The notes: generated by a model not told the origin, from the sequence alone. Counted from the stretch's first letter, positions 5,343 to 64,000 are shown. The stretch is 64,000 nucleotides of DNA from an uncultured Bacilli bacterium (GCA_934090735.1 CAKOJR010000001.1:4682-68681); one strand, 5' to 3'. Program-made: numbers and translations.

Positions 5343-5381
5343 AAAAAGCTTACAATATTTGGTTATTGTAGGCTTTTTTGA
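5343..5381. terminator. Bidirectional rho-independent terminator between ileS and the convergent gene
   Basis: Hairpin aagcttacaata/tattgtaggctt flanked by A-run on one side and T-run on the other. Confidence 0.6.
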
Positions 5382-34009: not shown

Positions 34010-34838
34010 TATGCAACTTAAGGCTAAAATAAAAAATATATCAAAAGAAAAAAATATTGATTTTAATACGTTACTTAGACTATATATGTATGATAGATAT
34101 TTAGAAAGACTTTCAAAAAGTAAGTATATAGATAATTTTATTTTAAAGGGTGGCTTTTATTTAAGTGTTTTATTTGGTGTAGAAAACAGGGCTACTATGG
34201 ATATTGATACAGCTTTTAGAAATGCAGATTTTAATGAAGAAACATTAGTTCAAATGATAAAAGAGATACTTTCTATAAATGTAAATGATAATGCAAAGTT
34301 AAATTATGTTAGTATAGTACCTATTAGAGATGAAGATGAGTATGGTGGCTTTAGGGTCACAATATTGGTTGAATATGAAAATATTAAGCAATCATTTCAT
34401 ATTGATATTGCAACAGGTGATCCAATAACTCCTAAAGAGATAAGATATAAATATTTACCATTACTTGGTGACGATTATATAAATTTATATGCTTATAATA
34501 TAGAAACTGTCTTAGCTGAAAAAATAGAAACGATTTTAAGCAGGCTTGAACTAAATGGAAGAACAAGAGATTTTTACGATATATTTTTAATTTACTCAAA
34601 AGAATGGAATAATGTTAATATTGAACATTTTAAGAAAGCAGTAAATAAGACATTTGATAAAAGAGGATATAGCGGAAATTTATGTAATTCTTTAAACATT
34701 ATAAAAAATAGTATTGTATTAAAAGAACGATGGAAAAGATATCAAAGTAATTTTTTATATGCTAGAAATATAGAATATGAGGAAATAATGAATTGCTTAG
34801 AAGAAATGTTAAAATACATAAAAAAATATGAGTATTAG
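34002..34838 (+). CDS. AbiEii/AbiGii-family nucleotidyltransferase toxin (DUF1814)
   Basis: LKAKIKNISKEKNIDFNTLLRLYMYDRYLERLSKSKY..FILKGG...MDIDTAF matches the AbiEii N-terminal and NTase pattern. Confidence 0.65.
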   Translation: MNSMQLKAKIKNISKEKNIDFNTLLRLYMYDRYLERLSKSKYIDNFILKGGFYLSVLFGVENRATMDIDTAFRNADFNEETLVQMIKEILSINVNDNAKLNYVSIVPIRDEDEYGGFRVTILVEYENIKQSFHIDIATGDPITPKEIRYKYLPLLGDDYINLYAYNIETVLAEKIETILSRLELNGRTRDFYDIFLIYSKEWNNVNIEHFKKAVNKTFDKRGYSGNLCNSLNIIKNSIVLKERWKRYQSNFLYARNIEYEEIMNCLEEMLKYIKKYEY

Positions 34839-41308: not shown

Positions 41309-42211
41309 ATGAAAAGGAAAGTATTTTTGTTAGTGGTTCTTGTTTTAATAATTACTGGTTGTGGTAAGAAAGAAGATGAAGTAAAGTTAAATAGTTTAAA
41401 AGAAGAGGTAATGTATAATAAAAAGATAGAGGATGATAGTTATTATAAGAAGATAAGTGGTGATGTTATTAATGATGGTACTTTATTTTCAGAAATGGCA
41501 TTTATTACTGGGCATGAGGCTTATATATTTGATCCGTCTAGTTTAAAGGAAGGTAATTTTAAATATAAGAAGGTTTTTGATATTCCAGAGGAAGTAAACG
41601 TGCTTAGTATGGATATTCCTTATGGAGCAGATATTTCTTTTTATTCAGATAATAATAAGAAGTATACTTTTAGGGATAGTAATTATGACAGGAATGTCGA
41701 AGACACGTATGCTTATTATGATAATGCGATATATAGTTCTAGTGATTATGTAGCTCATGATTATAGTGATTATTTTAAAGTGCCAATTAGTTATGATTTG
41801 ATGGGTAATTTGTTTTATGCTAAAGATAATGTTTTGTATAAGAAAAATTATGGTTATTATGATTTTATTAAGAAGATAAATATTGATGATAGTATTAGTA
41901 AAATTGATGGTAATTATGAAGGAGAAAAAATACTAAAAATTTATAATCAGAGAATTGTTAAAACAGATAAGGCTTTTTATGAAGTTGTAGAGTATTATAA
42001 AGATGGGGTTCTTAGTACGACTACTTTAAAGATGAATTTATTAAGTAAGTATTATGATGAAGTATTAACACTTACTTATGAGTATGTAATACTTAAGGAT
42101 TATACAATAATACCAATAAATGATACTTTAGTGAATAATCATGGTAAGGAGTATAATGCAAACTTTTATTTAAAGAAGTATGAAAGTGATTTAGATACAT
42201 TTGAAGAGTAA
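41309..42211 (+). CDS. Putative lipoprotein
   Basis: MKRKVFLLVVLVLIITGCG lipobox; Tyr/Asn-rich; 300 aa. Confidence 0.55.
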   Translation: MKRKVFLLVVLVLIITGCGKKEDEVKLNSLKEEVMYNKKIEDDSYYKKISGDVINDGTLFSEMAFITGHEAYIFDPSSLKEGNFKYKKVFDIPEEVNVLSMDIPYGADISFYSDNNKKYTFRDSNYDRNVEDTYAYYDNAIYSSSDYVAHDYSDYFKVPISYDLMGNLFYAKDNVLYKKNYGYYDFIKKINIDDSISKIDGNYEGEKILKIYNQRIVKTDKAFYEVVEYYKDGVLSTTTLKMNLLSKYYDEVLTLTYEYVILKDYTIIPINDTLVNNHGKEYNANFYLKKYESDLDTFEE

Positions 42212-42309: not shown

Positions 42310-43773
42310 ATGATAAACTTGATAAATGAGATAAATAGTAAGTTAAAAGCAATTATTAGTGAGTTAGAAGATAAGAAAAGTGAATGTGAAAGTGTTTTAG
42401 ATGATGTTAAGTCTAAAATTGATAAGAAAATTGATGAAGCCAAAAGGTATAAAGTTGACGTTGATAGTGCCAAGGATAAAATTAAAACATTAGAAGAAGA
42501 AATAAAGGCACTTGAAATTGATTTAACTGATTTAAACGAGAGGTTTGGTAAGAAAGACTTAAATGCAATTGTTGAAGCTGGTAATAAAGAGATTAATGCG
42601 AAAATGATTGCTAAACAAAATGAGATTACTAAATATCGTGAAAAAATTGGTGAACTTACTGAAAAGGCCAGAGCTATTAAAGACTTACTAATTAATTTAA
42701 AAAAGGATAAGGAAATTAAAACTGAAAGATTATCTAATTATACAAAAGCTTTAGAGTATTATTCTAAGGAATTAAATCGTATAATTGATTTTGCATCTGA
42801 AAACCCAGATAATTTAATTTTTGAACCTACTTATGAGGTTAAGAAATATGAGGATGTTAATTTAGATAGTCCTGTGTTTGATGAAATTAGTCAAATGGAT
42901 GAACCAGATGAAGAAGAGGAAACTACGGCTAGTGTTAGTGAACCAGAACCTGATGTAAAAACTTTAGAAGAGCCAGCAACAACAGATTATCAAAAAATAG
43001 ATTTTAAAGCTTTAAATGACTCTATAGATAGTGAGTATGCAAGTATTTTTGGAACTGGATTAGATGATGAGGAAGAAAAGACTGATTTAAAAGAACCAGC
43101 TACTGAACCTGAAGTTCATACAGAAAGTGAGAAATCTGAAGAATCTGTTCTTCAGGAAAAGAAGGAAGAATCTAAGGATGAAAGCTTAAATATTTTTGAC
43201 CATGAAAATGTAAGTGATGGAGGATTTAGTTTTGGTGGTTTAAGTGAAGCAGATTTGAATATGGAGCCTGAAGTAGAACCTGAACCAGTTACTACTGATA
43301 ATACAATGAATTCTACTGATACGGAAAAAGAAAATAGTTTAAGTTTTGAACCTGTTGAAGAAAAAAATGATAATGAAAATGAACTTATTAACTTATTTAC
43401 AGAAAATGGAGTAGATTATTATAATTTTACTAAAGCAGACCAAGATAGATTAAAAGCTAATTATAATAAAGAAATGTATAAGAAAGTATTTGATGTTTTA
43501 AAGAGAAACAATATTAAGCTAGATGAAATTTATGAATCAGCTGATATATTCACAACTAGTACACCAGCTGAAATAGAACATGTAATTAGTAAACTTTTAC
43601 TTGCAGGACAAACTACTAGTAATATAAGTTATGTTTTATCTGCATTACCACTTATCAATAGTTTTGATTTAAATGAAGTTATTAAGAGTTATGGACCTAA
43701 AGTTAGTGAAGCAAATATTACAGATTTGATTGTAAAAGCTAAACATTTGAATGATTTAGGAGGTAACAGATAA
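42310..43773 (+). CDS. Coiled-coil / acidic-linker protein (hypothetical)
   Basis: N-terminal heptad region, Glu/Asp-rich low-complexity centre, C-terminal helical domain; translationally coupled to next ORF. Confidence 0.5.
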   Translation: MINLINEINSKLKAIISELEDKKSECESVLDDVKSKIDKKIDEAKRYKVDVDSAKDKIKTLEEEIKALEIDLTDLNERFGKKDLNAIVEAGNKEINAKMIAKQNEITKYREKIGELTEKARAIKDLLINLKKDKEIKTERLSNYTKALEYYSKELNRIIDFASENPDNLIFEPTYEVKKYEDVNLDSPVFDEISQMDEPDEEEETTASVSEPEPDVKTLEEPATTDYQKIDFKALNDSIDSEYASIFGTGLDDEEEKTDLKEPATEPEVHTESEKSEESVLQEKKEESKDESLNIFDHENVSDGGFSFGGLSEADLNMEPEVEPEPVTTDNTMNSTDTEKENSLSFEPVEEKNDNENELINLFTENGVDYYNFTKADQDRLKANYNKEMYKKVFDVLKRNNIKLDEIYESADIFTTSTPAEIEHVISKLLLAGQTTSNISYVLSALPLINSFDLNEVIKSYGPKVSEANITDLIVKAKHLNDLGGNR

Positions 43774-50078: not shown

Positions 50079-50315
50079 ATGAGTATGGATGAAATATTAT
50101 TAGATGGTGTGATTGAAGTAAATGGTGAGAAGTTACATGTACTTTTTATGTTTGAAAATAATAATAAAAGATATATTGTATATGTTTTAGAAAATGGTGA
50201 TATTAGTGCTTCAATACTTGGTGATGATATAACATTACTTCCTATAACTACTGATGAAGAATGGGATATGGTTGATGCAGAGTTAGAAAAAAGGGATGAC
50301 ATATGGACAAAATAG
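50079..50315 (+). CDS. DUF1292 family protein
   Basis: IEVNGEKLHVLFMFENNNKRYIVYV...EEWDMV typical DUF1292. Confidence 0.6.
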   Translation: MSMDEILLDGVIEVNGEKLHVLFMFENNNKRYIVYVLENGDISASILGDDITLLPITTDEEWDMVDAELEKRDDIWTK

Positions 50316-51640
50316 TTGTTAGCTGTGAAAAAAATAAATTAACGACTAAATATTACAATAGTTTTGATGATAGTTCTTATAGTAATATCTTTTTTGGTGC
50401 AGAAGCTAAGAGATTTTTAGATGAAATCGAGAAGAGAGATGCTACTGGTGCGAGAATCAGTAAAGATGGTAAAGTGCTTAGAGTTGTTTATCCTGATAGA
50501 GTGATTTTCATTAAAGATTATAAGTTAGTGTTTGAAAATATTGATGCAAGAAGAAATATTGATAGATATAATGCTAATAAAGCTAAAAGGTATATGAATG
50601 GTACTAGGAAAGCTAAGAGAGTATCTAAGACTGGAGCTATTACTAAAGGATTATTAGTTCTTCTTATTATGGTTTCTGTATTAAGTATTAGTCATAAGAT
50701 AAAGAGTTTTGATGATCCGTTTACTCCTAATGCTAGCGCTACTTGGATGGATGATACTAATCAGGAAAGTATTGAAAAATATTTAAATGGTGAGCAGCCG
50801 ATTACGGATGATGATAAAGTAGTTTTAAATACGATAAGTAATACTACTGAGGGAAATGATCCAGGATATGATAAACTTTTATTAGATACACAGATTATAA
50901 GTTTATCTGACGTTGAAGAGGCAGAAAAGACGGAACCAACAAATGGAGAACTTCTTGCTCAAATGGTTGAGGAGAAAGATACTATTTATCATAATTTTAA
51001 TATTGATTTTAGTGATAGAACTAGTGATGAAAAAGCAGCCATAGCTAGAGAAAATTATTATAATTTGATTAGTAGATATGCGAAAACTTATGGGTTAGAT
51101 GCTAATTTAGTAATGGCAATTGCAACGCAAGAAAGAGCAGAACATAGTACGGAGATTGACCCTGGTGGTGGTATTGGTTTAATGCAAATACAGTATAGTG
51201 TTTGGGTTAATCAAGATGTTACAGCGTATAATTTTGAAACAGGTAACTGGGAGACATTTCATATAACTGATAGTAATATTAGAGAGCTTGATACCAATAT
51301 AAAGATTGGGTGTATGTATTTTCAAAATTGTTTAGTTAATATGGATTATAATGTACCAGCTGCATTATGTGCTTATAACTGGGGAACTACTAGTGCTAGA
51401 AATAAGATAAGTCAGTTTTCACAGGATAGAGGGCTTACTGTTAATGAAGTTTTAGAAGCAAATGATACTTCTTGGGTTAATTTGTTTGATGTTGATGGTG
51501 ATACTTCACTAGCTTATCCTAAAGTTGTTCTTTCTTATTATGATAGCAGTAAACCAATTATTAATGATAAAATAGATGAGAATGGTAATGATATTGTGGT
51601 AAGTACTACAGTAAGTAGTCCATTGATTAAAAATAAGTAG
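50303..51640 (+). CDS. Membrane-anchored lytic transglycosylase (SLT domain)
   Basis: TM anchor, then IATQERAEHS...GGGIGLMQIQ (catalytic Glu-Ser plus GLMQ SLT motif). Overlaps the DUF1292 gene by 13 nt. Confidence 0.7.
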   Translation: MDKIVVSCEKNKLTTKYYNSFDDSSYSNIFFGAEAKRFLDEIEKRDATGARISKDGKVLRVVYPDRVIFIKDYKLVFENIDARRNIDRYNANKAKRYMNGTRKAKRVSKTGAITKGLLVLLIMVSVLSISHKIKSFDDPFTPNASATWMDDTNQESIEKYLNGEQPITDDDKVVLNTISNTTEGNDPGYDKLLLDTQIISLSDVEEAEKTEPTNGELLAQMVEEKDTIYHNFNIDFSDRTSDEKAAIARENYYNLISRYAKTYGLDANLVMAIATQERAEHSTEIDPGGGIGLMQIQYSVWVNQDVTAYNFETGNWETFHITDSNIRELDTNIKIGCMYFQNCLVNMDYNVPAALCAYNWGTTSARNKISQFSQDRGLTVNEVLEANDTSWVNLFDVDGDTSLAYPKVVLSYYDSSKPIINDKIDENGNDIVVSTTVSSPLIKNK

Positions 51641-51648
51641 GTGATTAC

Positions 51649-53538
51649 ATGAAAGATAAAAAGAAAGTAAAAATTTATTATGGGTTACTAATAACTTTAA
51701 TTATTTTTGCAGGTGTAAGTTACGCTTGGTTTAGACTTACTAAAACTCAGGAAAATAAGAATGTTATTGGAACAAGGTCTTGCTTAGATGCAACGCTTAC
51801 TGAGGAAACTTCAAACATAGTTTTGGATGATGCTTTTCCAATAAGTGATGAAGATGGTATGAAGCAAACTCCTTTTACTTTTACTTTAAAAAATAATTGT
51901 GAAGGATATGTTAAAGTTTATATTACTATTGATAGTAAGTATAGAGAAAGTGCTAGTACTGATTATTTAAAAGATGATTATGTAAAAGCTAATTTGTCTA
52001 CCAAGGGAACTACTACGGGACAATCTACTTTATTAGCTAATAATCAGTTAATAGATTTAGAAAATAATAATAAAGGATATATTCTTGTATCAACTGGATT
52101 AAAAGCTAATGAAGAAAAGAGTTATGACTTAAGAGTATGGGTAGATAGTGAAACTACACTAGAGCAAGGATTAAATAAAAGCTGGGAAGGAAAGATAGTT
52201 GTTGTAGGCGAGGCTTCTGAAGTAGAAACTTTAAATGGTGCTATACTTGCTAGAAATGATGTGAAAGAGCCACTTACTGTGCCAGCTCAGGAAACAAGTG
52301 GCTATACTAAAGATGATATAACGAAAACCTTAACTATGAATATATCTCAAACATATCAAGGATATTATTTTACATATGGTACTGGATATGAAGCTAATGA
52401 AACTAATTTTAATTTAACTGGTGCTTCAGTAACAACTGAAACCTATGCTAATTCATATTCGAATTTAGTTGGCAAATATCTGCCTGCTGTATATGCTAAT
52501 TTTGTTAATTATAGTAATTTTTCATCAGCCACAGCGGGAACGATGAAAACAACTACTAATTTAGGAAGTGTGTATTATATTGTTAGTGCCAGCTTAAATA
52601 GTTTGACTTATAAAGAGATTTTATCAAATAAAAATCAAACAGAAGCACTTTTAGCTAGTACAGAAGATGATTATGGAATAAGTTATTATTTTAGAGGAGC
52701 TGTAAGAAATAATTATGTACAGTTTGCAAATAAATGCTGGAGGATAGTAAGAATCACTGGTGATGGAAGCGTAAAATTAATATTACATAATGATAATATT
52801 AATAATTCATCTACTCCGTGTTCATCAACGAATAATAGTGATACAGCAGCATTTGCTAGGTATTCTGATGATTTATATACTAACTCATTTAATCCGAGTT
52901 CTAATGATAATGCTTATATGGGATTTATGTATGGAACAACGGGTACAAGTAATTACGCGAGTACTCATGCCAATATTAATAAAAGCACAACTCTTGTAAA
53001 TTTAGAAGCTTGGTATGAGAAAAATAACTTAGATATGTATGTAGATAAACTAGCAGATACAATATGGTGTAATGATAAGAGTGTAGTTGATGGCGGATTA
53101 GGATATGGTTCTCAAGGTACAAATTATGGTGCACATAATAGAGTTACTAGTAGTGGAACTCCTTCATTAATATGTCCGAATGATAAAAATAATGGAAAGT
53201 TGTCTAAGTTTACTGTTAATGACGAAATTAATGGAAATGGTGCATTAACATATAAAATCGGATTATTAACTGCTGATGAAGCTGCATTTGCTGGTTTATC
53301 TGTTAATCTTCCAAATTATTCTATGTATTTATCTGAGAATGCTGAAGATATAGATTGGTGGACGTTATCTCCTAATAGTTCACAAAATAATTTATTTTTT
53401 TGGGTAGTAGAATCTAGTGCTTTACAGAGTGATCTTATCAAGAAAAATTTAGGTTTAAGACCTGCAATTGCTTTAAAATCTAATGTTGAAATTTCTGGTG
53501 GAAAAGGTACTAGTGAAGATCCTTATGTTGTTAATTGA
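51649..53538 (+). CDS. Surface protein paralog C: TasA/camelysin-like N-terminal region with SipW-cognate-type signal, conserved core, C-terminal RPAIALKS..GTSEDPYVVN module
   Basis: SYAWFRLTKTQENKNVIGT resembles the SipW-cognate signal motif; PFTFTLKNNCEGYVKVYITID TasA-like; shares the core and C-module with 757.. and 17181... Confidence 0.7.
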   Translation: MKDKKKVKIYYGLLITLIIFAGVSYAWFRLTKTQENKNVIGTRSCLDATLTEETSNIVLDDAFPISDEDGMKQTPFTFTLKNNCEGYVKVYITIDSKYRESASTDYLKDDYVKANLSTKGTTTGQSTLLANNQLIDLENNNKGYILVSTGLKANEEKSYDLRVWVDSETTLEQGLNKSWEGKIVVVGEASEVETLNGAILARNDVKEPLTVPAQETSGYTKDDITKTLTMNISQTYQGYYFTYGTGYEANETNFNLTGASVTTETYANSYSNLVGKYLPAVYANFVNYSNFSSATAGTMKTTTNLGSVYYIVSASLNSLTYKEILSNKNQTEALLASTEDDYGISYYFRGAVRNNYVQFANKCWRIVRITGDGSVKLILHNDNINNSSTPCSSTNNSDTAAFARYSDDLYTNSFNPSSNDNAYMGFMYGTTGTSNYASTHANINKSTTLVNLEAWYEKNNLDMYVDKLADTIWCNDKSVVDGGLGYGSQGTNYGAHNRVTSSGTPSLICPNDKNNGKLSKFTVNDEINGNGALTYKIGLLTADEAAFAGLSVNLPNYSMYLSENAEDIDWWTLSPNSSQNNLFFWVVESSALQSDLIKKNLGLRPAIALKSNVEISGGKGTSEDPYVVN

Positions 53539-53619
53539 TAGGTTTAGGCCTATCTTTTAGTTTGGGCTTTTTTTTCTTTCTAGATAATGTTATAATTTAA
53601 AGAGAATAGGGCTGGTGTT

Positions 53620-54522
53620 ATGAAGAATAAGAGTGGGTTTATTGCTACTAGTTTAATATATACTTTTTTTCTTGCTTTTATTGCTATATTAACTGCTCTT
53701 TTAAGTAATTATATTGCTAATAAGACGATACTTGATAGGTATAATAGTGATATTCAAAATAAACTTAATAATGGTAATGGTAGTGTTAGTTTATATGTAT
53801 CTTATGCTAGTATAGATGATGGTAAGACGATTACTAATTTAGTTCGTAATGGTAATTTTAGTGATGGTTTAAATGAGTGGAATATTCATGGTGGCGGTAA
53901 TTTTTTAGCTGCTAATTTTATTAAGCCTTGTATAATTAAGAATGGTTATAGTGGTTATTTATCTCAACCGATTAATGTTGTTCCTGATCATAAATATTAT
54001 TTAAGAATGGAGTATCATCAAGTTGGTAATAATAATGGGGATGTGTTTGTTTCAAGTGCTGTAGATAATAGTGATGTAGGTATAAATAAGGTTATTAGTA
54101 GTTCTATTAGTGGTGATGGTTGGAAAAGTATTTCAGAGATAGTAGAGTTAACTGGTAGTGAATTACTTAGAAGTATGATTGTTGGTAAACAAAGTTATGG
54201 TAGTTCTAGTACTTATTATACTAATTTACTTTTAATGGATATTACATATGCTTTTAATGATAGTGTTAGTAAAGATTGGCTTGATAATAATATAGGTTAT
54301 TTTGATGGAACGGTTTCTTTTTTAAAAAAGGATTTTGCAGATGATGACGAAATTACTTTTACATTAGTTCCTTACTCTGGTTATAAAATTAATACTATTA
54401 ATTGTGATTATGATAATTATGAAAGAACACCTACTACGGATGAAGTTGATACTAAATATTTATTTAAGTTTAAAAATAATAGTCATGATAATAGGTGTAA
54501 TATTACTTTTAAGCATGAATAG
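53620..54522 (+). CDS. Pseudopilin-like membrane-anchored protein with CBM4/9-like beta-sandwich domain
   Basis: N-terminus KSGFIATSLIY (pilin-like hydrophobic segment but no Glu+5). NGNFSDGLNEWNIHGGGN...DHKYYLRMEY...GWKSISEIVEL matches the CBM_4_9 pattern. Confidence 0.5.
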   Translation: MKNKSGFIATSLIYTFFLAFIAILTALLSNYIANKTILDRYNSDIQNKLNNGNGSVSLYVSYASIDDGKTITNLVRNGNFSDGLNEWNIHGGGNFLAANFIKPCIIKNGYSGYLSQPINVVPDHKYYLRMEYHQVGNNNGDVFVSSAVDNSDVGINKVISSSISGDGWKSISEIVELTGSELLRSMIVGKQSYGSSSTYYTNLLLMDITYAFNDSVSKDWLDNNIGYFDGTVSFLKKDFADDDEITFTLVPYSGYKINTINCDYDNYERTPTTDEVDTKYLFKFKNNSHDNRCNITFKHE

Positions 54523-54531
54523 GAGGACAGT

Positions 54532-55041
54532 ATGAAAAATCGAGGTTTTGTTTTAGTTGAAACAATTGTGGTTATTCTTGTACTTTGCGTTCTTTTGATT
54601 ATGCTTTATGGTGGGTATATGAATGTTATTAGTGCAGTTCAAAGAAAGAGTTATTATGATAATACAGAGTATATTTATAAGACTAATTTAATTAAGGAAT
54701 ATATTGAAAATAGTGGTTTTAATGGTTATGAAGGCGCTGATATGTATATTTATTGTCAGGGAAGCGCTGATTGCATATCTAGAGGAAACGATTATTTTGA
54801 AGAGTTAACTAAAAATATGCATGTTATTTCTATTTATATTATGAAGTGGTTTACTACAGATATAGCTGAGGATGAATTATCTAGTTTAGAAGCTACGACC
54901 CAAAATTATATTAGAAAATTAGATCCAACTAAGCCGACTAATGAAAATGTTTATAGAGTTATTGTTATGTTTGAAGATGAAAATAATTTAGGAAGTACGC
55001 CAACTATATATCAGTATGCTTCTTTAAAGTTAGGGGATTAA
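54532..55041 (+). CDS. Type IV pilin-like protein (class III signal peptide)
   Basis: MKNRG|FVLVETIVVILVL: prepilin cleavage motif with Glu+5. Confidence 0.7.
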   Translation: MKNRGFVLVETIVVILVLCVLLIMLYGGYMNVISAVQRKSYYDNTEYIYKTNLIKEYIENSGFNGYEGADMYIYCQGSADCISRGNDYFEELTKNMHVISIYIMKWFTTDIAEDELSSLEATTQNYIRKLDPTKPTNENVYRVIVMFEDENNLGSTPTIYQYASLKLGD

Positions 55042-55043
55042 TT

Positions 55044-55580
55044 ATGAATAAGAAGGGAATGACACTTGTTGAGATAATTGTATCGATTGTTCTGGTATCT
55101 ATTATTCTTGTTTTTATAACTAGGCTATTGATTACAGTTAATGGGTTATATAAAAGAAGTAAGTTAGAAGTTGATTTTGAAATATTAGATACTCTTTTAA
55201 TAGATGCGATAGAGTCTGATGTGAATAGGTATGGTGTTAAGGAAGTGAGCTCTGATAGTAAAAGTATAACATTTACTTTTAATGCTTATAGAGAGAGCAA
55301 ACTTGATGAGTATATTGTTAAAAAGTTATCATTAACAGATGATGGTAGTTATATAAAGTATGAACAAGTAAGTACAAGTACTCCTTTAACTAGTGATGAA
55401 AGAGCTAATAATTTTGTACGTAAGATTCCAGATGGAGCTATTTTGGATACTACCAATTGTTTTATTAATAATGAACTTTATAGTGATTCAACTTCTAAAT
55501 TATATGAAATAAAGTTTAAAATTATGTCTTCAAATGGAAATGATTTTACTGCTAATATATTTTTTAAAACTCTAGGATAG
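55044..55580 (+). CDS. Type IV (pseudo)pilin-like protein
   Basis: MNKKG|MTLVEIIVSIVLV prepilin motif. Confidence 0.7.
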   Translation: MNKKGMTLVEIIVSIVLVSIILVFITRLLITVNGLYKRSKLEVDFEILDTLLIDAIESDVNRYGVKEVSSDSKSITFTFNAYRESKLDEYIVKKLSLTDDGSYIKYEQVSTSTPLTSDERANNFVRKIPDGAILDTTNCFINNELYSDSTSKLYEIKFKIMSSNGNDFTANIFFKTLG

Positions 55581-55590
55581 AGGTGATTTT

Positions 55591-58500
55591 ATGAAAAGTA
55601 ATAAGGGTTTTACAATGGTAGAACTTCTTGCTGTTATTACAATTTTATCTGTTATTATGATTATTTTAATACCGGCTGTTGATAATATATCTAAAAGTAC
55701 TAAGGAGAGTATATTAAGTTCAAAAATTAATACTATAGAAACAAGTGCTTCAAAGTTTGGTGAGGATAATATTAATAATTATCAAAAGTGTACTAATGCT
55801 TTAGAGGGCGGGGCAATTGGTGGATATGTTTATACAGGTTGTTTGATTAGTGTTACTGATTTGGTTAGATTAGGTTATTTGGAGTTTGATACAACTAAAA
55901 ATGGTGCTAACTTTATTAGTAATCCAGTTACTGGTGGAAGTATAGATGGTAATATATTACTTTGTTATGATCCTCATACAATAACAGTTAATGCAACTTT
56001 TTATAATAATGGTGATGTAAATTATTCGTGTCCAGCAGTTAGTGATAGTGGTAATTATTCACTTAATTTAGGAGCTACCAGAAAAGATTTTTATTGGGGT
56101 ACTCATGAAGTATTTAAAACTAAAATATATACTAAAGGTGATTTTAAGAATATAACTTGTAGTGTTGATGGACCATTTAGCTGCTCTATTTCTGGTGATG
56201 ATTTAACCATTACTTTAAATGATAGTGGTACTGGAGCTAATGGTAGTTATCAAGTACAAGTAACGGCTACTTATAATGAAAATAGTGAAGATAAGAATCT
56301 TTATAGAAGAATGAATTTAGGTGTGTATGTTGTTAATTTTGATATAGATGATTATACACCGGGAATGTGTATGAAGACTTTTAGTAATGAGGTATTTAGA
56401 ATTACTGGTGAAAATTATGGTAAGTTTTCTTTGGAAGATGTTAGCGATGGATTAAATGCTACTATTAAAGATGATGTTCTTTATATGAATAGTGGTTCTG
56501 TTACTGGCGAGCAAAGTTTCCTTATTAAAGAAGATCATGCTGGTTTAACTAAACAAATTTTAAGAGAAGTTTATAATTTAAGTGTAGAAACGCAAATTAC
56601 GAATGTTATTGTTGGAGAAGCTGCTACTAAGGTAGAACTTAAGGCAGATGGTGCTGGTGATTTAAAGATTACGACTGATAGTGCAGCTGCTAGTTTATCT
56701 TCAAATAATAGTTCTTTTTCAAGTACAATAACTTTAAGAGGTCAAAATTATTTCTATATAAGAGGAAATAGTATTGGAACGGTTAATATTACGATAAAAG
56801 GCTCTTTATGTGGTGAAACTAGTTTTAGTGTAAATGTATCTAATATAAAACTTGATAACCAGGATATTCCTAAGTATTTATATTTTAACGGAGGCACAAG
56901 ACGAAATAATGATAAGACTCAGTTTAAGTCTAAAATAGTTGGTAGTACAGTTAATGATTTTTCATGTACTGTTTATAAGAAGAATGGTAGTAATTATGTT
57001 CAAAATGATGAATATTTAACGTGCTATATCGAAAATGATACTCTTACTATAGAAACAACTTCTGGTAATAATATTTTTAGTAATGTTACGGATTTAAAGG
57101 TTAATGTAAAGAGTGAAACAAATGGTTCTTTAGATATTTATATACCAATTATATATAGAACTAGTATATCTTTTAAAAAGAATGGTAGTAAAGTATCTAG
57201 AGTTTGTAAAGAACTTAATTCAAGTGCTGGGCTAAGTGATGAAACTATTTTGATTTATGGAAATAATTTAGGAGTTCTTAGTAGTGATGGCACTAGTTGT
57301 AATAGTAATACTACTAATATTGTTTTCGATAGTATGATAGATTATTATTTAGTAGATGTAGGTGATCCAATAAATCCAACTATTTCAATTACGAATAATT
57401 GTGCTAGCGTTTCCGATAGCTATGGAAAGATGGTTTTATCAAGACATAATGTTACTAGTTCTCAGTATAATAGTACACTTCCATATAAGCTTGGAAGAAC
57501 TAATACTGGTAGAGAGATTGTCTATATCAGAGAAAATAATGGTAATAGATTAGGTGCTCTTTATTATCACATTTATTCTTTAAATAGTAGCTCTAATTCT
57601 GTTACTTTAGGTGTTGGAAAGCAAAGTGCACAGATAAGAATTAGTTATGCTGCAACTGGTAGTGTTAGTTATAGGATTGCAAATAAAGATGTTGCCAGGG
57701 TTAATGTTATAAGTAGTGATACATTTTCTTATGATGATAATATTAATAAGACTTTTACTGATATAATTACAATAACAGCACTTAGAACGGGCACAACATA
57801 TTTAACTATAAGTGGAAAAGAATGTGGGACGTTTACAATTCCAATTTATGTTACAAATGTTTTTGCAATAAATTTAGATGGTGGCATATATGGAACTGTT
57901 AGTCAGTCATCTTTAACTTGTACTGAATCTAGACTTAATTCTGGGTGCTCTGTAACTTTACCTGACTTTACTGTACCTAGTGGAATTACGAAAAAAGGTT
58001 GGAGTACTAATCCAAATGGTGGTAATGTCTTAAGTGTTGGTAGTAGTGTTATGATTAATAATAATACTAAAGGAACTACTTATTATGCAATAGCAGATAA
58101 TCCAAGACCTAGTTGTTTATTTACAAATGTTCCTAGTGATATTTATGGTAAAGATAAAGTTTATATAAATTGTACTGATGTTGGTGGAGGCCTTTCTAGT
58201 GATACGATAAGTACTAGTAGTATAAGTGCTAGTAATGAAGTTATAGTAGAAAGTGTTAGTAAGGTTAGTAATATAACTAATGGATATAAGTTTGAAGTTA
58301 CAGTAAATCCAAATAATTATTATGGACCATTTACTCTTACATTAAATGAAGGAGCTGTTAGTGATGTATATGGATTTTCTAATAAAAAGGTTGTAACTAG
58401 TGAGATTATTAGTGCAGAACATGAATATGTAAGTTTTTATGAAATCGGTAAGGACAATAAAGAAGATTTAATTGCTTTCTTATATGATAATAAGGATATT

Positions 58501-59625
58501 GATGGAAGTGATGGTTATACACTTAAGGTATATGGTTCCGGTGACATGGAAGATTTTACTAAAGCACCATGGGATGGTTATGCAGAATCAATTAATAATA
58601 TTGTTTTAAGTAGTGAGTTAACTAGTATTGGTAACAATGCTTTTTATGGAACTAATATAAGTAATATTAATATACCTAATAGTGTTAGTAGTATAGGAGC
58701 ATCGGCATTTGAAAGTACTAGCTTAAAGATACTTAATGTTAATAGTGAAACTATTGGTAAGAGAGCATTTGCTAATAATTTAGAACTTACTAGTTTGACT
58801 ATTGGAGGTAATGTTAGAACTATAGAACAGTATGCTTTTAGTACAAATACTAATTTAAGTGATATAACCTTTAAAGAAGGCGTAGAGTATATTCGTGATT
58901 ATGTATTTATTGATAGTAAACTTGGCAATTTAGTTATGCCAAATAGTTTACAAACTATTGGGGATTATGCTTTTTATAATTTTAAAGGAGAAAGTGTTGA
59001 TATTAGGAATGCTTATGTAGGACTTGCATCATTTAGGGGAACTAATTTTAAAGAGATAAAAGCAAGCACTTTAGAGGTAAAGGATAACATTTTATATAAT
59101 GGAGATATTCTTATACTAGTTCCGGATAAGCTTGAGGGTAATGTTAAAATTATAGAAGGAACAAGTACAATAACTTATGAAGCATTAAAAGGCTTTGTAA
59201 GTGCTGATGAGAAAATGATGAGTTTAACTATTCCTAGTTCAGTTACAGAAATAAATTCAGTAATTAATTTAAATATAAAAGAGTTTATAGTAAGTGATGA
59301 TAATGATAGATATATGAGTGATAATGGAGTTCTTTATGATAAATACAGTGATGCTTTAGTAAGTATACCTAGTTATTATCAGGAGTCTAGTTATACCATA
59401 AATTCAAAAAGAATTAATAGTTATTCAATAATGAATAATATAATTCTTAAGACTATTACTCTTGGTGATACAGTTGAAACTATTGAAAATAATGCTGTTT
59501 ATGGTAGAGGAGATTTAGGAATAAGACAGGTTATTAATTATTCAAATGTTTCATATAGCAATGCTCATTATGATTTAGATTATTCTATATCTTTTATGGA
59601 TAAAGTTAATGATGTTCAAAATTAA
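55591..59625 (+). CDS. Giant pilin-adhesin fusion: prepilin N-terminus, Ig-like repeats, BspA-type leucine-rich repeats (1344 aa)
   Basis: MKSNKG|FTMVELLAVITIL prepilin motif; Big_2-like segments; C-terminal LRR_5/BspA repeats (IPNSVSSIGASAFES..., IGKRAFANNLELTSLTIG..., MPNSLQTIGDYAFYNF). Confidence 0.7.
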   Translation: MKSNKGFTMVELLAVITILSVIMIILIPAVDNISKSTKESILSSKINTIETSASKFGEDNINNYQKCTNALEGGAIGGYVYTGCLISVTDLVRLGYLEFDTTKNGANFISNPVTGGSIDGNILLCYDPHTITVNATFYNNGDVNYSCPAVSDSGNYSLNLGATRKDFYWGTHEVFKTKIYTKGDFKNITCSVDGPFSCSISGDDLTITLNDSGTGANGSYQVQVTATYNENSEDKNLYRRMNLGVYVVNFDIDDYTPGMCMKTFSNEVFRITGENYGKFSLEDVSDGLNATIKDDVLYMNSGSVTGEQSFLIKEDHAGLTKQILREVYNLSVETQITNVIVGEAATKVELKADGAGDLKITTDSAAASLSSNNSSFSSTITLRGQNYFYIRGNSIGTVNITIKGSLCGETSFSVNVSNIKLDNQDIPKYLYFNGGTRRNNDKTQFKSKIVGSTVNDFSCTVYKKNGSNYVQNDEYLTCYIENDTLTIETTSGNNIFSNVTDLKVNVKSETNGSLDIYIPIIYRTSISFKKNGSKVSRVCKELNSSAGLSDETILIYGNNLGVLSSDGTSCNSNTTNIVFDSMIDYYLVDVGDPINPTISITNNCASVSDSYGKMVLSRHNVTSSQYNSTLPYKLGRTNTGREIVYIRENNGNRLGALYYHIYSLNSSSNSVTLGVGKQSAQIRISYAATGSVSYRIANKDVARVNVISSDTFSYDDNINKTFTDIITITALRTGTTYLTISGKECGTFTIPIYVTNVFAINLDGGIYGTVSQSSLTCTESRLNSGCSVTLPDFTVPSGITKKGWSTNPNGGNVLSVGSSVMINNNTKGTTYYAIADNPRPSCLFTNVPSDIYGKDKVYINCTDVGGGLSSDTISTSSISASNEVIVESVSKVSNITNGYKFEVTVNPNNYYGPFTLTLNEGAVSDVYGFSNKKVVTSEIISAEHEYVSFYEIGKDNKEDLIAFLYDNKDIDGSDGYTLKVYGSGDMEDFTKAPWDGYAESINNIVLSSELTSIGNNAFYGTNISNINIPNSVSSIGASAFESTSLKILNVNSETIGKRAFANNLELTSLTIGGNVRTIEQYAFSTNTNLSDITFKEGVEYIRDYVFIDSKLGNLVMPNSLQTIGDYAFYNFKGESVDIRNAYVGLASFRGTNFKEIKASTLEVKDNILYNGDILILVPDKLEGNVKIIEGTSTITYEALKGFVSADEKMMSLTIPSSVTEINSVINLNIKEFIVSDDNDRYMSDNGVLYDKYSDALVSIPSYYQESSYTINSKRINSYSIMNNIILKTITLGDTVETIENNAVYGRGDLGIRQVINYSNVSYSNAHYDLDYSISFMDKVNDVQN

Positions 59626-59716
59626 AACTTTGGACATTTTTATTTATAAAAATAGTAGTTAGTGCCTTGATTAAAAGGTAATTATCATATATAATTATTT
59701 ATAGTAGGTGAGGTTC

Positions 59717-60990
59717 GTGGATTTTATAGAAAGGGAGAAGAAGAAAAGAACTATTTTGTATGGCTTATTATAGATTAACTAAAACACAGACAAATAAGAA
59801 TATTATTGCAACTAGAACTTGTTTAGATACTAGTTTAACTTAAGAAACTAGTGAAATAGTATTAGCTGAAGCTTTTCCAATAAGTGATGAAGATGGACTT
59901 AAACAGACCCATTTACTTTTACTTTAAAGAATAATTGTGATAGTTATGTTAAAGTAAATATAATGTTAGTAAGTGATTATAGAACAAGTGATGATACAGC
60001 TTATTTAAAAGATGATTATGTTAAGACTAATTTTTCTTTTAAGGGAACTACTGATGGAGAAATGGATATTTTAAGCTCATTTCCTTTGGGAGAAGCGGAT
60101 GTTAATACTGAAGGTTATATTCTTAAGAGTATGGGTTTAACGAGTAACGAAGAAAAGAGTTTTGATTTAAGATTGTGGGTTGATTCAGAAACTACTATAG
60201 AGCAAGGTTTAAATAAGATGTGGAGTGCTAAGGTTGTTGTTACAGCAATGGCTGCAGAGGAACCTCCTGCTGCACCTAAGGGGTGGTATGAAGCTAATAT
60301 AGGAACTTTTCTGGCAGCATTAAGGGAAAATGTTTCTTTAAGTAAAGTAGCTACTGTTCCTGGTAGTGAGGTTAGTGGCTATACGCACAACGATGTTGAT
60401 AGTTCGACAGCAAGTGTTAGTACGACGTATCAAAAATATTACTTTACTTATGGAACTGGTTTTGAAGCAAATGGTACTAAGTTTAATTTGACTTATTATG
60501 AAGATATGCTGGCTGATACAATATGGTGTAATGATAAAAGTACTTCTAGTGGATTAGGATATGGAACTAGTACTACTAATTATAGTGTTTATGGAAGATT
60601 AGTTACTTTTAAGAAACCAACATTAATATGTTCTAAAGATAATAGTGGCGAAAGTTATCTAAATTTACTGTAGATGATACAAGTTATGGTAATGGTAATT
60701 TAACTTATAAGGTTGGATTACTAACTGCAGATGAGGTAGTATTTGTTGGTTCTGTGTATGGTGTATATAACCGCTCTACATATTTGTATGAAAATGGTAC
60801 ATCGGTTTGGTGGACAATGTCACCTAAGGGTTATGATGCTAGTTATACAGAAGTTTGACGAGTTAGATCTGGTTATCTAAATGGAGATAGTGTTACGTCA
60901 TCTTATGCACTTCGTCCATCTATTGCTTTAGTTTCTACAGTTACAATTACTGGAGAAGGTACTAGTGAAAACCCTTATATAGTAAAGTAG
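59717..60990 (+). pseudogene. Decayed paralog D of the surface-protein family
   Basis: Homologous to the 51649.. gene. It has lost the about 10-codon TM segment with a frameshift, carries an in-frame TAA in the TasA-like region, a 1-nt deletion, a roughly 200-aa internal deletion removing the conserved core, and a further frameshift plus TGA before the RPSIALVS..GTSENPYIVK tail. Confidence 0.7.
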
Positions 60991-60996
60991 GTGTTT

Positions 60997-61566
60997 ATGA
61001 AGAAAAAATATGTTTATTTAATTGGTGTATTTATTATAGTATGCGTTATTATTCTTATTATTTGTTTTAGTAAGAAGGATAGTATCAGGCTTTATGATAA
61101 GTATAGTGCTAGAATAGGTATTAATTACAATGATAATAGTTATTCTAGAAGTTTTGATTATGATGGAGTAACTGGTAGAATAATATATGAAGATAAGACT
61201 GTCTATATGGATAGCAAAGGAGTATATTACAGTTTAGATAATGATTATTATAAGTATGAAACTGATATTAATTATACTTCACTTAGTGATGTGATTAGTA
61301 AATTTAAAATTTTAGAAAAAAACAATGAAGAGTATAGATGTGAAGTTAGTTCTGAATTTTTAGATAGTTTATTTATTAAAGGGACACCAAGTGATTGTTA
61401 TTTAAGTATAGATGGTGGATATGTAAAGGGGGTGAGTGTTAACTTCGATAAAGGAAATGTGTATATTTCTTTTAAGAAGTTAGGTGATGATTTTAGTGTT
61501 AGCATGCTTGGTTATTTTGATGAAAAATCTAAGATTGTGCATGATAATATATTGGAAATTAAATAG
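60997..61566 (+). CDS. Bitopic membrane protein (possible PilN/PilO-like pilus assembly component)
   Basis: Short cytoplasmic Lys-rich N-terminus, one TM helix, about 160-aa extracytoplasmic domain; located between pilin genes. Function is speculative. Confidence 0.4.
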   Translation: MKKKYVYLIGVFIIVCVIILIICFSKKDSIRLYDKYSARIGINYNDNSYSRSFDYDGVTGRIIYEDKTVYMDSKGVYYSLDNDYYKYETDINYTSLSDVISKFKILEKNNEEYRCEVSSEFLDSLFIKGTPSDCYLSIDGGYVKGVSVNFDKGNVYISFKKLGDDFSVSMLGYFDEKSKIVHDNILEIK

Positions 61567-61574
61567 GAGGATTT

Positions 61575-63338
61575 ATGAAGAATAAGAAAGGATTTACTTT
61601 AGTAGAAATTATTGCTGTTATTGCACTAATTGCAGTTATTGTTGGTATTTTTATTGTTAATTTAGTTGGTAAAAATGATCCTAAAGAAAATAATAAAGAT
61701 ACAGTTAAACAAATCTTAAGTGCTGCAGATGCTTATGTTAGTGCTAATAAGAGTGAAATTGAAAAGTTGTATGAGGGGTATAATTTTGTTGATATAACAA
61801 TTGGCGACTTAAAAAATAATGGTTTACTTAGTGAAGATATTATTAATAAGGAAACTAATGAAAAATATAAAGATGATGTAGTGGTTCGTGTTACTTTAAA
61901 TGATGCAACAAAAGCAACTGAGTTTGAACTTGATCCAGAAGATAAGGATACAGATAATACTTATCTTGTAGCTGATACTATTTATTTGGAGTATGATGCT
62001 AGTGGAACTAATTGGTGTAATGGGGAAAATGAATTTAAGGGATTAAATAATGCTGATTCAAATTATGGTAAGTTAGTTCTTACATCTTTAGATGAACCAA
62101 GTAGAAGTATAGATTTATTTAAAGATGATACTATTAAGGTAAAGTCTTGTAATGTTGATGTTACAAAGGCTGGTACTTATAGTGTAGTGTATACTTATAC
62201 TTATAATGGAGTTAATGTTGATAAAACAAGAACTGTATATGTAGCTGCTAGTGCTACTGATGTAGATAGTTTTACTGCTAATTTGAAATTAAATGGTGTT
62301 GTGACTAATAAAATTAATTTAGGTGCTACAGATGTTAATATTTTTATAACACTTCGTTATAAGAATGGTACTTCAAAAGAAATTGATAAACCAATAAATG
62401 AAATAACTGATTTTACTATTAAAGGATTTTCTACTGAACCTGTTGGAAATAAAACAGCAATAGTTAGTTATAATAAAACTAATAGTGATGGTTCTGTTCC
62501 TAGTCCAGTTAATTTAGATTATATGGTAAGTGATGAGCTTGTTGATTTTATTGGAAGTGATTGTGTTTTAGAGCCTGGTAAGACAGATGAATGTTATTAT
62601 AGAGGCGAAGTTGAAACTAACTATTTAAAATATGAAAATAGTTCATATATGTTTAGAATTTATTATAGAAATGGCAATGGTATTAAAGTTATTGCTAATG
62701 ATCCATATAGTTATACATGGAATGGAAAAACTAGCAGTGATTTAGTATATGGCATGATTGGTGCTTGTAAGTATAGTGGATGTTGTAATGGTGGAAGATA
62801 TTATTATCAAGGATTAGGTGGAACAAATTATGGGTCATCATTTAACTATCCTACAATGAGTAATATTGTTAATCATTTCTATACTTCTATTGTTAATGGT
62901 AGTCCTAAATATGTAGATAATCAATATATTACTGGTGCTGGACTTGGTGGTGGAGCATTCTATACTAAAGTAGCTCTTATGAGTAAAAATGATTATACTA
63001 AAGTAGCTAATTGTAATGGTAATAATTGTTTTAGAAGTTATTTAACTAATAATAGTAATGCTGGTAAAGATTTCTGGTTAGTAGAAACAGTTTCATTTAC
63101 GATGGATACTTCTAACTTTAACTATGGTAGAAGTGAAGCACATGTTTATAACAATTATGTTGATGCTAGTACATTTGTTGTTGACAAAGGTGGTTCTTAT
63201 AAAGGATATACTGATAATGATTATTATACTACTAATGTAACATATGCTACTAATAAGGTAAGACCAACATTACAACTTAAGAATGCTAAAATAGTTAGTG
63301 GAAATGGAACAAAAGCAAATCCATTTATTGTAAGGTAG
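61575..63338 (+). CDS. Large type IV pilin-like protein (587 aa) carrying the C-terminal module shared with the surface paralogs
   Basis: MKNKKG|FTLVEIIAVIALIAV prepilin motif. C-terminus VRPTLQLKNAKIVSGNGTKANPFIVR parallels RPAISL...G.GTSEDPYVV. Confidence 0.65.
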   Translation: MKNKKGFTLVEIIAVIALIAVIVGIFIVNLVGKNDPKENNKDTVKQILSAADAYVSANKSEIEKLYEGYNFVDITIGDLKNNGLLSEDIINKETNEKYKDDVVVRVTLNDATKATEFELDPEDKDTDNTYLVADTIYLEYDASGTNWCNGENEFKGLNNADSNYGKLVLTSLDEPSRSIDLFKDDTIKVKSCNVDVTKAGTYSVVYTYTYNGVNVDKTRTVYVAASATDVDSFTANLKLNGVVTNKINLGATDVNIFITLRYKNGTSKEIDKPINEITDFTIKGFSTEPVGNKTAIVSYNKTNSDGSVPSPVNLDYMVSDELVDFIGSDCVLEPGKTDECYYRGEVETNYLKYENSSYMFRIYYRNGNGIKVIANDPYSYTWNGKTSSDLVYGMIGACKYSGCCNGGRYYYQGLGGTNYGSSFNYPTMSNIVNHFYTSIVNGSPKYVDNQYITGAGLGGGAFYTKVALMSKNDYTKVANCNGNNCFRSYLTNNSNAGKDFWLVETVSFTMDTSNFNYGRSEAHVYNNYVDASTFVVDKGGSYKGYTDNDYYTTNVTYATNKVRPTLQLKNAKIVSGNGTKANPFIVR

Positions 63339-63346
63339 GTGAGATT

Positions 63347-64000
63347 ATGGAGAATAAAAAGAATTATGTTTTAATTGGTGTACTTATTGTTGTTATTGTA
63401 GGTGCATTATTAATCAAGTATTTTAGTGATAGGAAAACTAATAATGTTCTTAACGGTGATACAATTATAGGAAGTAGTTTAAATACTAAAGAACAAGCTA
63501 ATGTAGATTCTTATTTGAAAGATGAGCTTGTTAAAAATAAGTATACACTAGACAGAGCAAAAGTTTATGTAGATCCTTATAAAGTTAGTCCACTTAGTGC
63601 TATTATTATATTTTATACTGATAATAGTATGGAAGTTAGTGTAACAGTTAAGGGTAAGAATAATGATGATTTTACAGTAAATTATGGAAAAAGTAATTAC
63701 CATTATATACCAGTGTATGGATTATATGCTGATTATGATAATAAAGTTGTTGTAACTTTAGGAGATAAAACTACTAAAGAATTTACTATTAAAACTGATA
63801 AGATTAATGTTCCAGCTATAAAAGCTGAAAGCGGAAATGTAACTGCATCTGGGGACTTTTATTTGCTTACTAGCCCAATAGGTATGTGTTCCATTGGAGT
63901 TGATGGATATGGTAATCTTAGATGGATGTTAGGTGATTATTATTATCATAATATTAAAGTATTAGATAATGGTCATTTACTAATAGGTATTGATACTGAT
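63347..64000 (+). CDS. Bitopic membrane protein, 3' truncated by window end
   Basis: MENKKNYVLIGVLIVVIVGALLI TM anchor; ORF open to the end of the window. Confidence 0.45.
   Translation, partial: MENKKNYVLIGVLIVVIVGALLIKYFSDRKTNNVLNGDTIIGSSLNTKEQANVDSYLKDELVKNKYTLDRAKVYVDPYKVSPLSAIIIFYTDNSMEVSVTVKGKNNDDFTVNYGKSNYHYIPVYGLYADYDNKVVVTLGDKTTKEFTIKTDKINVPAIKAESGNVTASGDFYLLTSPIGMCSIGVDGYGNLRWMLGDYYYHNIKVLDNGHLLIGIDTD

Follow-up and report, generated by a model that had tools for sequence, protein, structure and literature searches.

Prepilins fused to adhesin-type modules, and a lectin-fold module shared with TasA-like proteins, in an uncultured gut Bacilli bacterium

Four adjacent pilin-like genes of unequal size, one of them without the glutamate at position 5 (Glu5), are the usual signature of a priming or tip complex, as in GspH-K, where GspK is the subunit lacking Glu5, and in FimU-PilVWX; the pil locus of Streptococcus sanguinis forms a single cluster. 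The present analysis concerns a cluster of prepilin genes, interleaved with TasA-like genes of what we call the A629 family, that runs from 50.3 kb to the end of a 64-kb stretch of DNA (hereafter the window; GC content ~28%) from an uncultured Bacilli bacterium (GCA_934090735.1, CAKOJR010000001.1:4682-68681). Modular pilins, which carry grafted binding modules and are thought to be displayed at the pilus tip, are a widespread published class (Raynaud et al. 2021, PMC8179133), represented in S. sanguinis by the modular minor pilins PilB, with a vWA module, and PilC, with a lectin module (PMC8179133; PMC9934059). TasA forms donor-strand fibres in Bacillus subtilis (PMC9674648; PDB 8aur), and a Tad-type pilus cluster has been described in the uncultured gut order TANB77 (PMC11680825). 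DUF6273, the name given to the N-terminal domain of the Thomasclavelia ramosa IgA protease (PDB 9qa6; PMC12402451), has been described as a C-type-lectin fold and occurs in the phage targets of diversity-generating retroelements (DGRs) termed 'tentaclins' (PMC10743442).

Compared with these systems, the locus is best read as an unusual variant of a known minor-pilin and tip-adhesin system rather than a new one. An earlier reading of the window (the sequence-only reading) had seen a composite locus that it could not match to anything described; its pilin part does fit the modular minor pilins (PMC8179133), together with a four-minor-pilin set of which one lacks Glu5. As in S. sanguinis, this is a monoderm in which one locus encodes several modular pilins, each with a bulky binding module attached to a class III signal peptide and small pilin module, and tip display and adhesion would be predicted. 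Unlike in S. sanguinis, the payloads are a carbohydrate-binding-module (CBM)-like domain, immunoglobulin (Ig)-like repeats with BspA-type leucine-rich repeats (LRR; 1344 aa) and Ig-like domains with a DUF6273 lectin fold, the locus is without major pilin, ATPase, platform and peptidase, and a conserved arylsulfotransferase (ASST)-family gene and TasA-like paralogs are embedded in it. The arrangement as a separate operon of about four priming or tip minor pilins is shared with fimU-pilVWXY1E of Pseudomonas/Neisseria and with GspH-I-J-K. PilY1, a non-pilin beta-propeller encoded with minor pilins, may find a parallel in the ASST-family propeller that closes the module here, although ASST belongs to a different propeller family and is membrane-anchored. 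The locus is also unlike type II secretion systems (T2SS) and the type IVa pili of Pseudomonas/Neisseria in belonging to a monoderm with no secretin; GspG and GspH models score 14-19 bits against cut-offs of 80-89, with no other Gsp component in the window. The TANB77 cluster offers a further likeness in that there, too, metagenome-assembled genomes (MAGs) alone revealed pilin-like proteins that an uncultured gut Firmicute clade with small genomes has conserved, but it is Tad/Flp-type and includes ATPase and platform, whereas the prepilins described here are type IVa-like (GFxxxE) and have no machinery nearby. What makes the locus unusual is the exchange of a lectin module between pilin and TasA-like carriers, the conservation of an ASST-family gene and a small protein (G191), and the scattering of the machinery.

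The following open reading frames (ORFs) lie on the + strand, as do all genes from 50.3 kb to the window end; the last was completed from an ENA contig (L001) that is identical over a 12.4-kb overlap and gives 9.3 kb past the window end. A slash marks the predicted cleavage site.

53620-54522, +, B300: pseudopilin-like protein with leader and hydrophobic helix, no Glu5, and a CBM-like jelly-roll module
54532-55041, +, C169: putative small minor pilin (G/FVLVE; TIGR02532)
55044-55580, +, D178: putative small minor pilin (G/MTLVE; N_methyl and TIGR02532)
55591-59625, +, E1344: giant modular pilin with Ig-like repeats and a C-terminal BspA-type LRR region (N_methyl, LRR_5)
~59708-60984, +, pseudogene of an A629-family paralog (tblastn; longest open piece a 236-aa ORF at 59963-60673)
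60997-61566 (alternative start 60991), +, G191: small bitopic all-beta protein, translationally coupled to H587
61575-63338, +, H587: modular pilin with pilin module (aa 1-~140), two Ig-like domains (~167-320) and DUF6273 module (~330-587)
63347-64000 (window end), +, ASST: 5' part of a 624-aa N-terminally anchored arylsulfotransferase-family beta-propeller

Four prepilin ORFs and one pseudopilin-like ORF had been placed here from the sequence alone, including pilins of 1344 and 587 aa, and we find them where they were placed (the two large ones being E1344 and H587), with B300 lacking Glu5 and the other four passing curated models. All five begin with a short basic leader that ends in Gly, ahead of a stretch of some 20 hydrophobic residues. 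The leaders with Glu5 read MKNRG/FVLVE (C169), MNKKG/MTLVE (D178), MKSNKG/FTMVE (E1344) and MKNKKG/FTLVE (H587); that of B300, MKNKSG/FIATS, is followed by the hydrophobic helix. D178, E1344 and H587 pass the Pfam N_methyl model (PF07963; 24.4, 26.3 and 27.0 bits, cut-off 21.2), C169 stays below it at 16.2 bits, and all four pass TIGR02532 (18.1-22.9 bits, cut-off 16.3; C169 18.1, D178 22.9), while B300 matches neither. A prepilin regular expression applied to all window ORFs of at least 60 aa picks out C169, D178, E1344 and H587 alone, and the clustering of prepilins is thus not due to chance. Compared with PDB sequences, the first ~30-65 residues (alpha1) match almost exclusively type IV pilins or pseudopilins, among them geopilin, S. 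sanguinis PilE1, PilA, GspG and MshA, with the alpha1 of E1344 likewise matching solved pilins; C169 in addition shows a weak ComGF-like match (E=6e-4). The leader Gly and Glu5 are strictly kept in an alignment of H587 orthologs down to 34% identity. Judged by these sequence features the prepilin N-termini are genuine, and the alpha1 matches to solved pilins and pseudopilins, together with the class III signal models scoring above their cut-offs, speak against ordinary signal anchors.

Three of the five pilin-like proteins (B300, E1344 and H587) carry additional modules. The C-terminus of E1344 is a BspA-type LRR region (LRR_5, E=1.3e-48), and in B300, for which Pfam and NCBIfam have no family, residues 72-152 resemble the CBM-like domain of the Cry1Ac protoxin at E=1.4e-5. 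The predicted structure of H587 (predicted local distance difference test score, pLDDT, 79.5) opens at the N-terminus with a long helix and a small sheet, followed by two Ig-like domains and, at the C-terminus, by a domain of lectin-type fold that a fold search identifies as DUF6273; Foldseek searches of the PDB with the same model returned generic tandem-Ig matches only. The large ORFs are pilins fused to adhesin-type modules, that is, a pilin module joined to a separate non-pilus domain, as in modular pilins. The families are narrow, with 265 proteins for B300 and 51 for H587, and a metagenome scan with the H587 family recovered just two more full-length loci. In a more distant clade (CAKOOH; L039 20198-21877) we noted a 559-aa prepilin with Cys-rich CS..CGGG.(Q/K)S repeats that resemble thrombospondin type 1 repeats, another modular pilin architecture.

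Synteny comparison in related genomes, which the sequence-only reading had proposed, recovers its gene order in three of them (L-numbers, apart from L001 and L112, denote loci or contigs from relatives, sampled over ~1.3 Mb in total, with ~15-25% of each genome covered). UMGS1021 (L004), an "uncultured Tenericutes" MAG and the closest sister genome, has the same gene order with orthologs 65-84% identical. In L081, where H587 has a 50% identical ortholog, E1344 is followed by three A629 paralogs, G191, H587 and ASST. On L080, a 1.03-Mb contig at 30-52% identity, an A629-like gene and two small ORFs precede B-C-D-E-G-H-ASST, the flanks of the module are entirely different and no SLT gene lies upstream. 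As gene order is kept in UMGS1021, L081 and L080, we define the conserved module as B300-C169-D178-E1344-G191-H587-ASST, within whose gene blocks the junctions measure 2-10 nt. Orthologs are 35% identical for B300 (L080, same position), 74% (L004) and 48% (L080) for C169, 69% and 37% for D178 (UMGS1021 and L080), and 68%, 42% and 30% for E1344. G191, the small bitopic protein correctly reported to follow the pseudogene, is 67% identical to its ortholog in L019 and 37% to that in L081, and L080 has an equivalent by position; it matches nothing in Pfam, NCBIfam models or the PDB. The bitopic ORF that had been seen to be cut by the window end proves to be the ASST-family protein (Pfam Arylsulfotrans E=1.1e-33, Arylsulfotran_N E=1.1e-16). 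Its gene closes the module and is better conserved than any other member, with orthologs at 84, 59 and 52% that always directly follow the H587 ortholog; its match to E. coli AssT is too weak for judging catalytic residues, and a literature search for ASST together with pilins returned nothing relevant.

Upstream of B300 the following features were found.

50079-50315, +, small DUF1292 ORF
50303-51640, +, SLT445: membrane-anchored lytic transglycosylase (Pfam SLT, E=1.4e-10)
51649-53538, +, A629: TasA-like protein with signal/anchor, TasA/camelysin-like N-domain, middle domain and C-terminal DUF6273 module
53537-53554, +, terminator-like hairpin followed by a T-run, in the 81-nt A629-B300 gap (a consensus match alone)

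SLT445 does carry an SLT domain, as had been proposed; it adjoins A629, however, and not the pilins. We considered and rejected it as a partner of the filament. Its start overlaps the DUF1292 ORF, a housekeeping-type gene to which it is translationally coupled, it is separated from A629 by 8 nt, the hairpin (one of only two terminator-like sites in 14 kb) intervenes before B300, and no counterpart lies upstream in L080; the UMGS1021 ortholog is 76% identical. On account of this DUF1292/A629 coupling, the hairpin and the absence in L080 it is not counted in the module, and SLT445 is probably a neighbour that lies outside it.

H587 and A629 share a C-terminal module, as the sequence-only reading had suspected, and the relationship is real but distant. 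Against the A629-family profile, H587 gives three colinear weak hidden-Markov-model segments (best domain E=0.004) that include a YYxRG...NY...FRI motif and a ...VRPxLxL...GxGT..NP end, and these agree with the DUF6273 fold of its C-terminal domain. The two proteins thus share a DUF6273/C-type-lectin-fold module, of which H587 has a distant copy, and the same lectin-fold cassette is found on a pilin carrier and on TasA-like carriers. This differs from the T. ramosa protease and the phage DGR targets in that DUF6273 stands here on a type IV pilin and on TasA-like proteins, and no DGR was found in the window or the related loci sampled.

The N-terminal signal or anchor of A629 is Sec-type and ends in SYA/WF, and the family layout consists of a hydrophobic segment ending [ST]-Y-A-[WFY]-F, a variable beta-rich N-domain and a conserved DUF6273 module of ~300 aa. 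As in TasA and camelysin, a signal ending in an aromatic-Ala-aromatic-Phe motif precedes a beta-sandwich, and the best PDB fold match of the A629 N-domain is the TasA fibre subunit (8aur), which has the same type of beta-sandwich; the AlphaFold2 model of A629 is poor (mean pLDDT 49.7), and only its N-domain match was used. Four of 16 diverse paralog N-domains match Peptidase_M73 (PF12389; best E=3.7e-5), A629 itself having no match at E<=0.1, and hhalign of the N-domain alignment against an approximate TasA query gave E=0.001 at a probability of 21%. A PDB profile search with the A629 family yielded no matches. The SipW-cognate signal model TIGR04088 finds one of the 16 N-domains at E=0.044, TapA one of 16 at E=0.098, and a crude motif scan for the signal-peptidase-I catalytic motif finds none in the window or the ~1.3 Mb of paralog-centred loci. 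These data support a TasA/camelysin relationship of the N-domain and do not support SipW dependence, and of the SipW/TasA-type paralog described earlier the TasA-like fold therefore stands and the SipW-cognate label does not. In contrast to TasA, A629 is 2-3 times longer, with an extra middle domain and the DUF6273 lectin-fold module, it lacks a sipW or tapA neighbour, the TIGR04088 signal and an M73 match of its own, and its family comprises at least 16-19 dispersed paralogs rather than one operon.

The family is large, with more than 6,300 homologs of A629, and in a scan of species-representative genomes the 141 matches were concentrated in a few gut MAGs. Four assemblies have at least 16-19 different paralogs each, most of them among housekeeping genes with no pilin nearby. 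Two further intact copies in the window, which the sequence-only reading had not listed, lie far from the pilin cluster, beside IleRS and LeuRS.

703-2322, +, intact dispersed A629-family paralog, 539 aa (hmmsearch with the family profile, E=3e-173)
17181-18869, +, intact dispersed A629-family paralog, 562 aa (hmmsearch, E=1e-196; DUF6273 E=0.002)

Within the module, tblastn confirms the decayed TasA-like paralog as a pseudogene of the family: it is 50% identical to A629 over 175 aa, with at least 3 frameshifts (pieces in frames 1/2/1/3) and a ~180-aa deletion (A629 residues ~258-438 missing), and is orthologous to an intact 527-aa gene at the same position in UMGS1021 (73% nucleotide identity). 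The E1344-G191 gap, occupied here by the pseudogene, holds 0, 1 and 3 A629 paralogs in L080, UMGS1021 and L081, respectively, and an A629-type gene lies upstream of B300 here, in UMGS1021 and in L080. In UMGS1021 the E1344 ortholog and the gap paralog are, in addition, separated by an inserted ORF of 556 aa (L004 18056-19726) that lacks a signal sequence and looks cytoplasmic, and this marks the gap as a variable insertion site. In neighbour-joining trees without support values, gap paralogs of different lineages cluster together on the N-domain, as do two upstream paralogs, while on the C-terminal module cluster-resident and dispersed copies are intermixed; grouping by position on the one and not on the other indicates long residence in the cluster combined with module shuffling. 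Two side observations concern the family: the CAVIQT01 contigs of a Phocaeicola vulgatus bin (L063-L065) carry A629-family genes at ~51% identity, most likely a binning error, and on an 8.3-kb contig (L009 2401-8081) an RcpC/CpaB-like gene, a T2SSE ATPase and two membrane proteins stand directly upstream of an A629 paralog, perhaps as part of a mobile element, or else as a second case of the family being linked with a secretion ATPase.

Profile searches for T2SSE, T2SSF and Peptidase_A24 found none in the 64-kb window or the next 9.3 kb (73 kb in all). The reported absence of PilB/GspE, PilC and PilD from the window is thereby confirmed, and the proposed extension of the contig past 64 kb brings no pilB, pilC or pilD in the 9.3 kb read. 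It had been suggested that the machinery lies beyond 64 kb or is encoded elsewhere; the former finds nothing in these 9.3 kb, and the latter is supported by phylogenetic bracketing from sister genomes that encode an orphan ATPase. Motif scans for PilD and T2SSE picked up their targets in unrelated loci that served as positive controls. Using the canonical pil locus of an unrelated metagenome (L112) as BLAST probe, we found that L112 PilB matches a 447-462-aa protein in three genomes of the lineage: UMGS1021 (contig URHW01000003), JAUNFK and CAKOOH. The gene (L066 1043-2431, L029 4084-5427 and L062 7733-9097, all on the - strand) always stands alone on the opposite strand, beside LytR-family, HD-domain, ValRS and MurB genes. 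Its product matches T2SSE over its full length (E=2e-126), GspE (1.5e-148), PilB (8.5e-146), ComGA (1.4e-80) and PilT (3.5e-52), scoring 495 bits to GspE (cut-off 630), ~490 to GspE/PilB and 270 to ComGA (cut-off 300), and has Walker A, Walker B, a His box and a tetracysteine motif (C-x2-C...C-x2-C). Lone small prepilins of 141-171 aa with canonical KKGFTLVE are similarly wedged among housekeeping genes (QueH/FtsY, EngB/Der) and are candidate major pilins: one of 141 aa lies 16.5 kb downstream of H587 between QueH and FtsY (L001 19877-20302) and matches ComGC at E=1.9e-7, and others are at L031 4998-5513, L071 2694-3146 and L076 3229-3666. Type IV filament genes thus appear to be scattered singly among housekeeping genes in this lineage. 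Some relatives also have a Tad-like operon (L071 14293-18691, L076 12184-16601, L079 9-4407) with two TadE-like pseudopilins, a CpaE/ParA-like protein, a TadA/CpaF ATPase (T2SSE E=5e-60) and TadB-/TadC-like membrane proteins, which gives the lineage a second type IV filament system.

We lean towards a model, probable though well short of certain, where the module encodes the minor (priming or tip) subunits and adhesins of a Gram-positive type IV filament and the A629-type genes are a separate matter. Prepilin peptidase would cleave the five pilin-like proteins after the leader Gly, and B300 (a candidate GspK/ComGG-type tip subunit, having no Glu5), C169, D178 and E1344 would form an initiating tip complex through which the filament tip bears a CBM-like module together with an Ig/LRR adhesin, both of which might bind ligands, with H587 as a second modular pilin displaying the C-type-lectin-fold module. 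A PilB/GspE-type ATPase encoded elsewhere would power polymerisation of a small major pilin, possibly the orphan 141-aa prepilin 16.5 kb downstream. The A629-type proteins would be Sec-exported TasA/camelysin-like surface or fibre proteins with the same lectin-fold module, a few copies of which may have been housed in the pilin module for a long time, both upstream of B300 and between E1344 and G191, duplicating and decaying there. Several points weigh against this model. The tip-complex assignment relies on gene number, size and the missing Glu5; fold searches gave no match of the H587 model to a pilin globular domain; neither PilC (T2SSF) nor PilD (Peptidase_A24) turned up in the window, the 9.3 kb past it or the ~1.3 Mb sampled from relatives, ~15-25% of each genome; it is sister genomes, and not this one, that showed the ATPase; across lineages, the module retains positional orthologs of the A629-type genes, which could mean a functional link; and G191 and the strongly conserved ASST, which may have roles in the apparatus, are left unexplained.

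The positional orthologs of the A629-type genes bear on the possibility that the pilin module and the TasA-like lectin proteins work together, which we regard as unlikely. Under one variant a short pseudopilus driven by the GspE-like ATPase would push or position TasA-like proteins through the wall as a monoderm T2SS-like exporter, and under another the pilus tip would nucleate or anchor TasA-like donor-strand fibres. The A629-type genes upstream of B300 in three genomes and in the E1344-G191 gap in UMGS1021 and L081 (as a pseudogene here), their old residence as judged from the N-domain tree, the shared payload module of H587, an ATPase scoring slightly better to GspE than to PilB and the RcpC and T2SSE cluster adjoining another paralog on L009 would all suit such a link, but the majority of the 16-19 or more paralogs per genome are surrounded by unrelated housekeeping genes, away from any pilin, the gap copy has decayed to a pseudogene here and is missing from L080 and hence dispensable, the hairpin separates A629 from the pilins, the C-terminal-module tree mixes resident and dispersed copies, and the N-termini of the family are ordinary Sec-type. 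With copies dispensable and most of the family elsewhere, we treat functional coupling as a minority possibility, and the dispersal of at least 16-19 copies per genome likewise speaks against a pilus-specific role for the TasA-like genes. There is a small chance that, in this reduced-genome gut lineage, the two unrelated fibre carriers of one DUF6273 cassette, a type IV pilin and a greatly expanded TasA-like donor-strand family, are functionally linked systems, in which module, GspE-like ATPase and ASST export, anchor or nucleate TasA-like fibres; if true, type IV filament and TasA-type matrix would be joined in one hybrid system of a monoderm, its machinery genes dispersed over the chromosome.

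It is also improbable that there is no filament at all, the prepilin N-termini being mere cleavable or retained anchors for CBM, LRR and lectin adhesins beside a vestigial type IV machinery. Unclustered machinery genes, PilC and PilD unseen in the sampled loci, small genomes (as in the near-genome-size 1.03-Mb contig) and a pilin module of H587 with no fold-search match are in keeping with that reading, yet strict conservation of the leader Gly and Glu5 in H587 orthologs implies selection on filament-assembly residues, four unequal pilin-like genes with one lacking Glu5 are a typical priming set, and an intact PilB/GspE-type ATPase with all its motifs is kept in three genomes. Still more doubtful is a comG-type competence pseudopilus operon for DNA uptake. 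The lineage is a monoderm of Bacilli type, the N-termini show weak matches to ComGC, ComGE, ComGF and ComGD (E 2e-7 to 5e-3) and the 141-aa pilin matches ComGC; all Com scores (14-31 bits), however, lie far under the equivalog cut-offs (49-80) and come from nothing but the shared alpha1 helix, comGA and comGB are missing from the adjacent genes, the ATPase of the lineage prefers GspE/PilB to ComGA by the scores given above, and Com operons such as those of B. subtilis and S. pneumoniae are not known to encode pilins of 300, 587 and 1344 aa bearing CBM, lectin and LRR modules. A standard comG or T2SS operon, named by the sequence-only reading as what would overturn it, is thus countered by unreached equivalog cut-offs and the lack of an adjacent ATPase or platform gene. 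Least credible of all, and rejected as a candidate, is that the lectin-fold modules of A629 and H587 are DGR targets and the locus a hypervariable receptor array. A loop of A629 (aa 576-603) is the least conserved, hypervariable stretch among its orthologs and corresponds in position to the DGR variable regions of related domains, but near-identical strain variants differ at scattered sites with no burst of changes in the loop, and neither the window nor the related loci (~1.3 Mb) show a reverse-transcriptase motif.

The minor-pilin and adhesin module offers a candidate attachment apparatus for abundant uncultured small-genome gut Bacilli (MAGs labelled 'Tenericutes/Bacilli'), homologs occurring across a great many human-gut assemblies. 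With it, the modular pilins described so far gain three types of payload. Its lectin-fold module, moved between pilin and TasA-like carriers, parallels the module sharing of modular pilins and PilY1, and the lineage's singly scattered type IV filament genes represent an arrangement that operon-based annotation would miss. The TasA-like/lectin family takes up an estimated ~3% of a genome of ~1-1.5 Mb (at least 16-19 genes of ~1.9 kb), a share that points to strong selection on surface recognition.

Downstream of ASST on L001 lie genes for a transporter, a TPR protein, KsgA, MurG, FtsQ, QueH, the 141-aa prepilin, FtsY and YlxM. Elsewhere in the window, three ORFs of 627, 300 and 487 aa (5363-7246 on the - strand, 41309-42211 and 42310-43773) match no Pfam family at E<=0.001, and an AbiEi/AbiEii toxin-antitoxin pair occupies 33383-34838, a similar pair (L081 13758-15294) standing directly after the ASST gene in that relative. 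Finally, an ORF of the Coat_F (spore coat) family is present at 28059-28391 although relatives are labelled Tenericutes/Mycoplasma; together with MurG, FtsQ and SLT it points to a walled organism, which makes these labels doubtful.

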